64,000 nt of DNA from Paraspadella gotoi (GCA_051294375.1 CM119266.1:873554-937553); one strand, 5' to 3'; numbered from the stretch's first letter, positions 44,001 through 47,000 are shown. Notes: a model not told the origin generated them from the letters alone. Translations and numbers: made by a program.

Positions 44001-47000
44001 TGCATTGAGGGAGACACTCGCTGAAAACCAAATTATGTCAATATATATGATTTAATACTAATTAGAAATTAAATTTACCGTCTTATTTATTTTCCCCTCC
44101 TTTCCATTTTATCTGCTTGACTTTCAGGTCGGGTGGCTTTTACGAATATAATTGATAAAAGAAAAAATCTTACTGAACAAAGGAGGTAAAAAGAGATAGA
44201 ATAAAAACTAAGATATTATGGCAACGGGAGGATAGCCTGTGATACCCGGGGCGCGGGGTATCTCACCAACTGGCGTAGGGGCTGCGTACCCTCAGTGACC
44301 GCCTCCTGTCACTGGCATGTTTATACCGGCACCGTCACATTTAAGCCAGAACCGGGATACCCAGGGATTGAACCCGGGACGCACGGATGGAATGAGATGA
44401 TTTAGCCTGCTCAGCCATTGAGACGAGGCTGAGGACGGACAGCAGTGAGGCAGCTTTAAGTCTTGCTGCCACAATATCGTAAAAGAAATGTAAGGAAACG
44501 TCTCACCGAGAAAGATCTCTCAACTCGCTCGTGCAATGGAACCAAAGGTGACCAAAATCGCAGAGTCGAAAGCTGGGATACTCGACAGTGAAGTTGGAGT
44601 CGGAACTGCAGACGTTTTCCTCCAAGAATCGATCCCAGTCAGGACGACAGACTGCGCGGTGGTTGAGGATAAAGTCCTTCTTTTCCTTCTCGCATTTGGC
44701 GCTGAGATTCAAACCCACGCCTCCCTTTTCAACGCATTTGTCCACACATCTGAACAAACACTTCTTTTTTATCGATGCTTCTCGATTTGTACTCAGATTT
44801 TAATCATTGTTAGCTAATATTTTACCTTGCCCGGTCGTAGTGGTTTTTCTGACAATCGGGCAAAAATTCTTTTGGAAATTCTTGTGTATAGTTTGTTCCT
44901 TTTCCGCTGAGGAACTTCATTCTCTGGATATTCTCGATAGAAATCCCAAAAAGTTTTCCTTTTCGATGAACTTTTGATTTCGACCTGCAGAGTGCAGAAA
45001 GTTAAGATTAAATTCACAATGTAATAATATATAAGAAAAACAAAATAATATTTTAATTAAAATCTATATTTATCAAAATCTAAAAATCAAGAAGCAATAG
45101 TTTTTATCTTAATTTTGTTTTAATTTTCACACGTGTTTTAGATTTTTTAAAAAAATTTACGCTTAATATATTTATATTTAATTTTATATTTTATAAATAT
45201 ATTTAATTTTATATGATTTTTTCTAAATTTAGTTTAATATATAGTAAATAGTCATAATTTTTTTATAAAACAATATCTACGACTACCGCTAAATTTTGTC
45301 ACCGCATCTTTGACTTTGGACTTTCTACGGCATCGACGAACCTGGCGTCGATAGGCGAATGCGGTGACGCATTAAGGGTCAAATAAAAGTCGAGTTCGTC
45401 GACGTCGTTCTGCCAGTGGACGAAAAAGATGGCGGCGGGGGGCATCCACTAGAGGGTGGGGATGTGAATCCGATCACGCTCATTGATAGAGAATTGAAAA
45501 AAAGCAGCATCAACAGTTAAAAATTATCATATTAAAAAATATGAGGCACTTTTGTAAAATATGGCTGCAAGCCACCGAAGCGGTTTTATTTCCCGGGATC
45601 TGTGGTGTATATTTAAGATTTCATTCCGTATAAGTTTTGTAAGGAAATACCTGACACAATCCGTACATACCTGACACAATCCGTACATACCTGACACAAT
45701 CCGTACATACCTGACACAATCCGTACATAGCGTCAACTCCGAATCCGTAGCAAACGTTCATATCGAAAATCGTCGGTCGAAATTCGAAGGGAAAACGAGT
45801 CGTGGTCTTTATGTCGATTTCTTCGCTATGAAGACCGTCGGACAACGGCGGCCAGACGGAATACTCGAGGCGGCGGTAGGCGCGCCAGATGCGAGGATCT
45901 CCGCGCGGAAGACAGAAGACGACGCGGGGAAAAGTGGGCGTGGTCTCCATGGGCGCGGAGGAGGCGCGTCCAGTCAATTCTTCGACGTGCATGACGCTTT
46001 TTTTTTTGTCCCGAGGGGGAGAGATGATGGCGGCCACGAAATAGAAATTTAATAATAATGAAATTTTTTTAGATAATTTTTTTTTGTTACTTATTTAGCA
46101 CGAAATGGAACGAAAAAAAAAAAATAAAACTAACAACAAAACAAAACGCGCGAAAAGGAACCTCAAAAAAATTATGAAAAGACAACTCGTATGATAATTA
46201 AAGCGATGATGATGATGATGACGATGTTGATTATGATGACGATGATGATGAACAACTCAACGCAACTCAACCTGACGAGATTTTCCTCGGGATCCGAATA
46301 ACTTTTATAAATGGTGAAAATGGAAAAGTAGACGTAAGCGTAACAGGCGAGGCAGACGAGGACCCAGGCGACCCGACGATGCCTGTCGTTAGGTTTTAGT
46401 TATTGTTAATTATTACTATTATCATCGATTGATTACTAAACTCGAGCTTAGTTTGCCTTTTTTTGTTTGTTTTGAACCTGGGATGCGCCGGAGATAATTT
46501 GTCGAGACCGTGAGCTGACGTGGTCGATAAAAAGTCTGACCATTTCTTAGACGCCATCTTTCCTTTTCTTATTGAAACGACGATATTTATTTTTATTATT
46601 TATTCACATTGGAACTTTTTCTCATTTGATTTCGTCGGTCTGAATGACGATTTTTTTTCCATTTACGTCGAAACGTCAAAAAAAACCAAAAAAACTTAGC
46701 CACAGCAACAACAACAACGAGAAAACAACAACGAAAAATCAATGAAAGATACGTTGATTTAAGTGAATCGAGTTTCGTCAATGAAAAAAAAAACGGAAGA
46801 AGAAACTGGATCTCAGTCTGACGTCGAGATGATATCTGACATCGAAACAATGACATATGACATCAAAATGACAGCGCGGATGTTAAAAGGACATTTAAAT
46901 TAAAAAGAGTCGCGATTTAAAACGATGTGTGTTACTAAAGAGATTTAGAATTAAATCCAACATCAAAGTAACGTTTAACATTCAAATGATGTGACGCCTG

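Follow-up and report, generated by a model that had tools for sequence, protein, structure and literature searches.

In the 64,000-nucleotide stretch of Paraspadella gotoi DNA that we analyzed (GCA_051294375.1 CM119266.1:873554-937553; hereafter the window), a very high-copy repeat, here called family 1, is very probably the solo long terminal repeat (LTR) of a small Helenus-type LTR retrotransposon, which is non-coding and carries a predicted twister ribozyme inside the LTR. Two copies lie on the minus strand, copy 1 at 44217..44473 (257 bp) and copy 2 at 60606..60873 (268 bp, with many indels as assembled), and they are 91% identical across an end-to-end alignment. Read on that strand, both start with TGTGGCAGC and finish with GTTGCCATA, which gives TG...TA ends, and copy 1 has an imperfect 9-bp terminal inverted repeat (7 Watson-Crick matches). 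Each copy is flanked by an exact target-site duplication (TSD) of 4 bp only: ATAT for copy 1 (44213..44216 and 44474..44477) and CCAC for copy 2 (60602-60605 and 60874-60877). The two duplications differ from each other, lengths of 5 to 11 give no match, and the probability of two 4-mer matches by chance is about 2e-5. Within copy 1, a predicted tRNA-type promoter for RNA polymerase III (Pol III) consists of an A box at 44406..44417 (minus strand, element position 57) and a B box at 44365..44374 (minus strand, element position 100); the A box fits the description TRGCY/YGG given for box A of Helenus (PMC10886601; here and below, publications are cited as far as their accessible parts go). There is no tail and no run of four or more T inside the element, and the host DNA 8-10 nt downstream of the solo copies has such a run. 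Neither ARAGORN (0 genes) nor Rfam finds a whole tRNA in the element. The indels of copy 2 are probably local assembly noise, because the adjacent FYVE exon is frameshifted too. Within the window we found no third full copy, no third family 1 end and no match to a primer-binding site (PBS).

The first-pass annotation of the window had described two minus-strand copies with identical ends, different exact 4-bp TSDs, no tail and A and B boxes about 55 nt inside, and had read them as the solo LTRs of an element that is non-autonomous and unites a tRNA promoter with a twister. The description holds in each of these points, and the reading is supported by the sharp ends of the family, by paired double changes in the ribozyme and by the flanks of a related element. 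We read the unit as an LTR because this relative runs from its 3' end into PBS-like sequence and has a polypurine tract (PPT) before its 5' end. The relative, found in sequencing run X13, is about 90% identical to family 1 (24 differing letters across a 226-base match). In its contig 7 (depth 24), the 3' end of the element is followed by AG and then by TGGTGAGCCC, which has the position and form of a PBS and, compared by eye, agrees with the tRNA-Trp PBS of Kojima (Fig. S2) at 11 of 13 positions. In contig 9 (depth 20.6), which shares a 30-base overlap with contig 7, a G-rich purine tract resembling a PPT lies 3 nt before the 5' TG. The deepest contig of run X7 (127.8), a run in which the flanks of copy 1 are uncovered, contains the whole LTR together with about 250 bases on the PBS side, which would be compatible with a non-coding LTR-internal-LTR locus of about 1 kb or less, and a 7-letter insert at the element 3' end in one rearranged contig of run X4 weakly resembles the same PBS start. 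We conclude that the repeat is very probably the LTR of a terminal-repeat retrotransposon in miniature (TRIM).

The abundance of the family and the sharpness of its ends can be seen in public sequencing-run contigs, which we compared with the window; 13 of the 19 listed runs contain part of it, none of them recorded as RNA, which has no bearing on expression. The first comparison covered four runs and 18 loose-end rows, with 455 more lying outside it; in the second, 10 of 17 such rows were covered, together with 17 of 20 pieces. Summed contig depth, which is not a copy number, is about 3e5 on the element against 26.6 on its flanks in run X1, and 4-9e5 against about 200 in run X4. The ends are sharp and the flanks are unrelated between copies: in run X1, 14 + 25 contig ends fall at 44216/7 and 22 + 13 at 44473/4 (agreement 0.42-0.46). 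Twelve contigs of run X4 extend the match as far as 44213, a hint that the family favours ATAT targets. Two deep contigs of run X7 (96.5 and 88.8) are diverged copies of the 44217-44473 element, and the second has a flank that is also found in run X9; both are probably decayed copies within other repeats. Outside these runs, a 22-nt family 1 motif had 0 matches in a metagenome contig collection and a gapped P2 motif had 68, while motif scans of a viral contig collection gave 3, 0 and 0 matches and those of a genome contig collection 0. We take the 71 motif-matching loci in the contig collections as chance, none of them passing the twister descriptor described below.

The predicted ribozyme of copy 1 lies at 44270..44349 on the minus strand and is assigned to the P5-permuted twisters by descriptor, layout and covariation. 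Across element positions 125-204 the order is P5, P2, GA, the pseudoknot strand T1, an 8-nt segment that represents a minimal P1, U^AA, P2, GC (the T2 strand), P3, P4 and loop L4. This loop holds the partner strands of both T1 and T2 (44281..44288, minus strand). The permuted order is the one claimed in the first-pass annotation, as is the predicted cleavage at U^A between 44323 and 44322 (minus strand), which follows from the position in the twister layout. The type-P5 features found are P2, P4, T1 with three Watson-Crick pairs (two in copy 1, see below), T2 (GC/GC), U^AA, a catalytic G followed by A, and an end in P5. A twister descriptor, drawn up after the sequence had been seen, has the copy 1 site as its single match on both strands of the window. 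The shuffled controls gave 0 matches among 40,000 element strands and 4 among 1,121 windows. In the X13 relative, six changes fall at paired positions of the ribozyme, five of which keep or restore pairing, including the outer P1 pair, which is changed on both sides. The other changes in this relative are a canonical A at the A-A position of L4, where family 1 (organism A) has C, and two changes at unpaired sites; in addition, its P3 loop contains a deletion. Twisters tolerate A-to-C at the A-A pair, an imperfect P1 and any base before the cut (PMC11662667). We expect, with a high degree of confidence, that the modelled twister is active in intact copies.

A second element in the window, absent from the earlier annotation and 27 kb from copy 1, has the same arrangement. 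Family 2 was located via a weak BLAST match to the B box and is a likely solo LTR at 16662..16969 (minus strand, 308 bp, TG...CA), bordered on both sides by the 5-bp repeat TATTG; if its end lies at 16695 instead, it would measure 275 bp and have an imperfect 4-bp repeat. On the minus strand it has a tRNA-type A box at 16907-16897 and B box at 16867-16858 (element positions 63 and 103), followed by a predicted P5-permuted twister at 16768..16848 whose predicted cut, 16822^16821, is at element position 148. This twister has an 8-bp P5, a full three-pair T1, a canonical L4, a 6-nt linker with a CCGG core and a P2 that is one base short, and its minimum-energy fold yields P5, P2, P3 and P4 unaided. 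A relaxed descriptor finds exactly two sites in the real window, namely copy 1 of family 1 and family 2, as compared with 0 in 20,000 shuffled family 2 strands and 37 sites in 837 shuffled windows. Plain sequence similarity between the two families is confined to the tRNA-like part. Of 25 helix positions, 14 are changed on both sides yet paired and 8 are unchanged; pairing is lost at 2, and 1 falls in a gap. GA, UAA, GC and the L4 frame are identical. The helices covary between the families and, at one pair, within family 1, as judged from few sequences with a between-family register set by hand. Family 2 sits just upstream of a same-strand exon (about 16560-16430) that is hydrophobic and receptor-like.

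Where a twister would normally carry a P1 hairpin, family 1 has an 8-nt palindromic segment with a CCGG core (44324..44331, minus strand), predicted to form a 2-bp hairpin as a monomer and an 8-bp duplex between two copies. A normal P1 is absent from both families: family 1 can form at most 2 bp (with a 4-nt loop) and monomeric family 2 none. The calculated self-duplex energies are -10.9 kcal/mol for family 1 (8 nt) and -8.1 kcal/mol for family 2 (6 nt). By its listed changes, the X13 segment is again a perfect palindrome with its outer pair changed on both sides, and CCGG is kept in family 1, X13 and family 2 while the remaining helices turned over. By analogy, the kept palindrome fits a pairing of two copies, as with some amphibian retrozyme hammerheads, which are dimeric (PMC7229834), though this is no proof. 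The first-pass annotation had proposed that P1 could form only between two copies. As a necessity we reject this, even though the palindrome is conserved, since P1 is dispensable for twister cleavage (PMC5408937; PMC11662667) and a 2-bp hairpin is possible in the family 1 monomer. Dimer-assisted cleavage is therefore plausible, and that a dimer is needed or strongly favoured is a tentative idea to which we give less than even credence.

Several observations weigh against the interpretation of these elements as LTRs with a working twister. The compared runs contain no contig with LTR, internal part and LTR in one piece, and the internal part is known only from 20 and 17 letters in the X13 relative. 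The diverged X7 contig of depth 96.5, probably a decayed copy, lacks both the ribozyme core and the 5' end of the LTR. The likeliest TSD of family 2 is 5 bp, as opposed to the 4 bp of animal Helenus. On the side of the ribozyme, the Rfam match that the first-pass annotation had set as a check did not materialize: Rfam gave 0 matches at gathering score and, at E up to 10, only chance-level matches to non-twister models. Copy 2 as assembled fails the descriptor, and copy 1 has 2 of the 3 Watson-Crick pairs of T1, which is complete in the family 1 majority and in family 2. The mismatch is private to copy 1, because nearly all of the family depth has the T1-completing base G at 44287 (234,973 of 235,134 in run X1). 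The nested twister fold of copy 1 has -19.5 kcal/mol as compared with -24.9 kcal/mol for another fold (a gap of 5.4, with pseudoknots uncounted), and its region folds no better than shuffled sequences (z 0.09). In X13, one change disrupts the terminal pair of P5. Variants at 44324 that disrupt the outer pair of P1 make up 1.0% of depth in run X1 and 6.1% in run X4. Finally, the register between families 1 and 2 was fitted by hand to the structure, and MAFFT does not align the two ribozymes.

From the ends, the 4-bp TSDs, the A and B boxes, the covarying twister layout and the PBS/PPT-like flanks of the relative, all of which are present in the DNA, we infer a cycle of transcription, cleavage, ligation and helper-dependent integration in which the element would work as an animal LTR retrozyme, a proposal that we regard as reasonably likely as a whole. 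Pol III would begin transcription in the tRNA-like section of the 5' LTR and, as there is no T4 run inside the LTR, continue through it. The twister in each LTR would then cut at U^A and free exactly one unit, composed of the 3' part of the LTR, the internal part and the 5' part of the LTR. Such a cut-to-cut unit would carry a 5'-OH and a 2',3'-cyclic phosphate and would have no terminal repeat, which a linear LTR RNA requires. A host ligase of the RtcB type, the enzyme that circularises animal retrozyme monomers (PMC7229834), would join its ends to give a circle. Copying would then fall to a Gypsy-type reverse transcriptase, primed at the PBS and likely by tRNA-Trp, which would travel round the circular template and rebuild both LTRs; insertion of the product by the integrase would create a 4-bp duplication. 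Solo LTRs may arise via LTR-LTR recombination or from short complementary DNAs (cDNAs) of the circle. The scheme is the one put forward for plant LTR retrozymes, in which there is room for solo-LTR cDNAs too (PMC4918200). As for the central step, we lean towards the double cut and the circle being used for transposition.

The alternative that survives best is a Helenus-type TRIM with an active twister that makes no circle. Here the ribozyme would trim or destabilise the transcript, for example by setting its 3' end instead of a terminator or by limiting read-through, and uncleaved linear RNA would be the template for ordinary LTR reverse transcription. This alternative fits all of the DNA-level evidence equally well. 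The lowest-energy fold of copy 1, moreover, blocks the twister, so that some transcripts could escape cleavage, and transcripts of the solo copies would reach the T4+ run downstream. However, rapid cleavage by the twister of the 5' LTR would break the template and take away its terminal repeat, a difficulty that plant retrozymes solve by circularising (PMC4918200), and the presence of a ribozyme at the same place in two distant families suggests a benefit to the element. We consider a cycle without circles unlikely on the whole, while giving it real weight.

Much less probable is that the unit is a tRNA-derived short interspersed element (SINE), or one dependent on Penelope/Naiad enzymes, that carries a twister, was moved by target-primed reverse transcription and has ends that are merely LTR-like. 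Precedents exist for its parts: a tRNA promoter is joined to a ribozyme in the Schistosoma hammerhead SINE (PMC6765202), and twisters are known in RTE/Perere-3 non-LTR elements (PMC8501958; PMC7761336). We rejected this reading, given that family 1 shows none of the features of a SINE (a 5'-terminal tRNA head, a 3' tail or tandem units, and a variable, long TSD). Its tRNA part is internal, beginning about 50 nt into the element, a tail is absent, the two ends are constant, the TSD measures 4 bp in both copies examined, and the PBS-like and PPT-like flanks stand at LTR positions. Animal non-LTR retrozymes, in contrast, are without PBS and PPT and have longer TSDs (PMC7229834).

We likewise rejected, as very improbable, a non-autonomous DNA transposon (a Ginger-like miniature inverted-repeat transposable element) that captured a tRNA-like piece and a twister. 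Ginger-like elements also make a 4-bp TSD, and the TG start and short terminal inverted repeat (7 of 9 Watson-Crick) would suit such an origin. However, the inverted repeat is imperfect as well as short and its ends differ (TG...TA), which is also the case in several Helenus LTRs (PMC10886601), PBS/PPT-like flanks do not belong in a DNA transposon, and it is hard to see what a ribozyme would do in a cycle that involves DNA only. Equally improbable is that we see the remnant of a twister which has ceased to cleave, or a fold that resembles one by chance: the missing Rfam match, the weak folding score and the defects in all three window copies would fit this, but the shuffle controls, the invariant core with paired double changes in two families and the activity of about 94% of tested natural twister candidates, in type-P1 forms (PMC11662667), argue against it.

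The anatomy of the element is that of Helenus (TRIMp3), a group of TRIMs whose LTRs hold tRNA-like A and B boxes, whose animal families make 4-bp TSDs, whose helpers are presumed to be Gypsy elements and whose solo LTRs are numerous (Kojima 2024, PMC10886601). Family 1 shares with the animal families of Helenus a short LTR starting with TG, A and B boxes about 50 nt in, a 4-bp TSD, a PBS and PPT, and frequent solo LTRs. The defining features are found here as tRNA-derived A and B boxes in the LTR, a 4-bp TSD in 2 of 2 copies of family 1, and a PBS and PPT in the X13 relative only; the likeness is one of anatomy. The difference is the twister after the B box. In the accessible text of the Helenus paper the word 'twister' does not occur and 'hammerhead' occurs only in a reference title, and no twister was seen by eye or by short term searches in the animal Helenus consensus LTRs, where line breaks can hide matches (PMC10886601). 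Inspecting these LTRs by eye, however, we noticed in Helenus-2_SyJa-LTR and Helenus-2_SyUm-LTR (gall wasp) a type III hammerhead core with three stems after the B box (PMC10886601 supplement), with a loop-loop complementarity of about 12 bp, unmentioned in the accessible text of the paper. Both of these elements have a PBS, a PPT and 4-bp TSDs, and their PBS is of the tRNA-Trp type, like that of the X13 relative (PMC10886601). A hammerhead in Helenus-2 and a twister here suggest a recurring design with an exchangeable ribozyme.

With plant LTR retrozymes (Cervera et al. 2016, PMC4918200), the element shares a non-coding LTR organization with a ribozyme in each LTR, a PBS and PPT, a 4-bp TSD, solo LTRs and a predicted cut-to-cut monomer without terminal repeat. 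It differs from them in its animal host, in having a twister instead of a type III hammerhead, in its internal tRNA-type promoter, and in that circles are here a prediction. If cleavage and circles hold, the element works like an LTR retrozyme, yet it stands outside the group as defined, which has a type III hammerhead in each LTR. With type-P5 twisters it shares the helix order, U^AA, GA, the GC/GC pseudoknot, the three-pair T1, the L4 layout and an optional P3 (PMC5408937; PMC11662667), and it departs from them by a P1 reduced to a palindromic linker of 6-8 nt, by the C at the A-A position in family 1 and by remaining unscored by Rfam. The Perere-3/RTE variants are also twisters with a non-standard P1 inside a retroelement, but they occupy the 5' end of autonomous elements of the long interspersed (LINE) type, are open at P1 and have variable TSDs (PMC8501958; PMC7761336), whereas here the ribozyme is P5-permuted and lies in the middle of the LTR of a non-coding element. 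Animal non-LTR retrozymes and the Schistosoma tRNA-hammerhead SINE are non-coding, ribozyme-bearing animal repeats too (PMC7229834; PMC6765202; bioRxiv 10.64898/2026.07.22.740005); some of the former need dimers for efficient cleavage, and the latter joins a Pol III promoter to a ribozyme (PMC7229834; PMC6765202). They differ in being tandem, with type I hammerheads, without LTR, PBS or PPT, and in using Penelope-like or LINE enzymes (PMC7229834; PMC6765202). The first-pass annotation had known of no description of the combination as a whole, which is right for one part of it: the tRNA-promoter mini-LTR with 4-bp TSDs is already known as Helenus; the novelty lies in the ribozyme. In the literature searched we found neither an LTR or TRIM with a twister nor an animal LTR retrozyme; outside that search lay the greater part of the subscription papers, the Repbase and Dfam collections and the PMC11662667 supplement (>2,600 natural twisters).

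The remaining features of the window concern the host genes and other repeats. Copy 1 lies just upstream of a same-strand exon encoding a DEG/ENaC domain, between likely splice sites, and is thus probably intronic in sense orientation; copy 2 is antisense, after a donor site in a FYVE-domain gene that we take to be ZFYVE1-like, whose exon near 60400-60490 is frameshifted as assembled. Pfam searches with 19 chosen open reading frames (36180-63000) detected GDA1/CD39 NTPDase, a PAN domain, DEG/ENaC, SRCR with thrombospondin-1 repeats, B-box and FYVE. At 35992-36198, a perfect, AT-rich 99-nt inverted repeat with a 9-nt spacer overlaps the start of an NTPDase exon and could be a foldback element or an assembly artefact. 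A near-identical tandem duplication at 17526-20800 (spacing about 1,766 bp; families D13, D15, D18 and D19), with an N gap nearby, is either a recent duplication or assembly redundancy. Minisatellites lie within or beside genes at 37449-37920 (27 bp), 43409-43712 (25 bp) and 45647-45746 (20 bp).

In the literature to 2026, LTR retrozymes are those of plants, with type III hammerheads, and non-LTR retrozymes those of animals, with type I hammerheads, and in the publications cited twisters are tied solely to non-LTR elements (PMC8501958; PMC7761336). An animal LTR element with a twister would break both pairings, of LTRs with plants and hammerheads and of twisters with non-LTR elements, and would join Helenus and the retrozymes; two published Helenus consensus LTRs, moreover, appear to carry an unremarked hammerhead. 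Rfam misses this form of the twister, and therefore such elements may be under-counted. The system is short and very high in copy number, and its cut site, its circle junction and the question of monomer versus dimer are all fixed by sequence. More speculatively, and with more doubt than belief, we suggest that animals have an LTR retrozyme class of their own, made up of Pol III-driven mini-LTRs with an exchangeable ribozyme slot behind the tRNA promoter, in whose twister form the palindromic P1 would act as a two-copy gate, efficient cleavage needing the ribozymes of the 5' and 3' LTRs to pair. If this is true, cleavage would turn full elements into circles, the solo LTRs that abound in host introns would remain almost silent, and the family would provide a natural dimer-gated twister together with a defined job for twisters in making retrotransposon circles.

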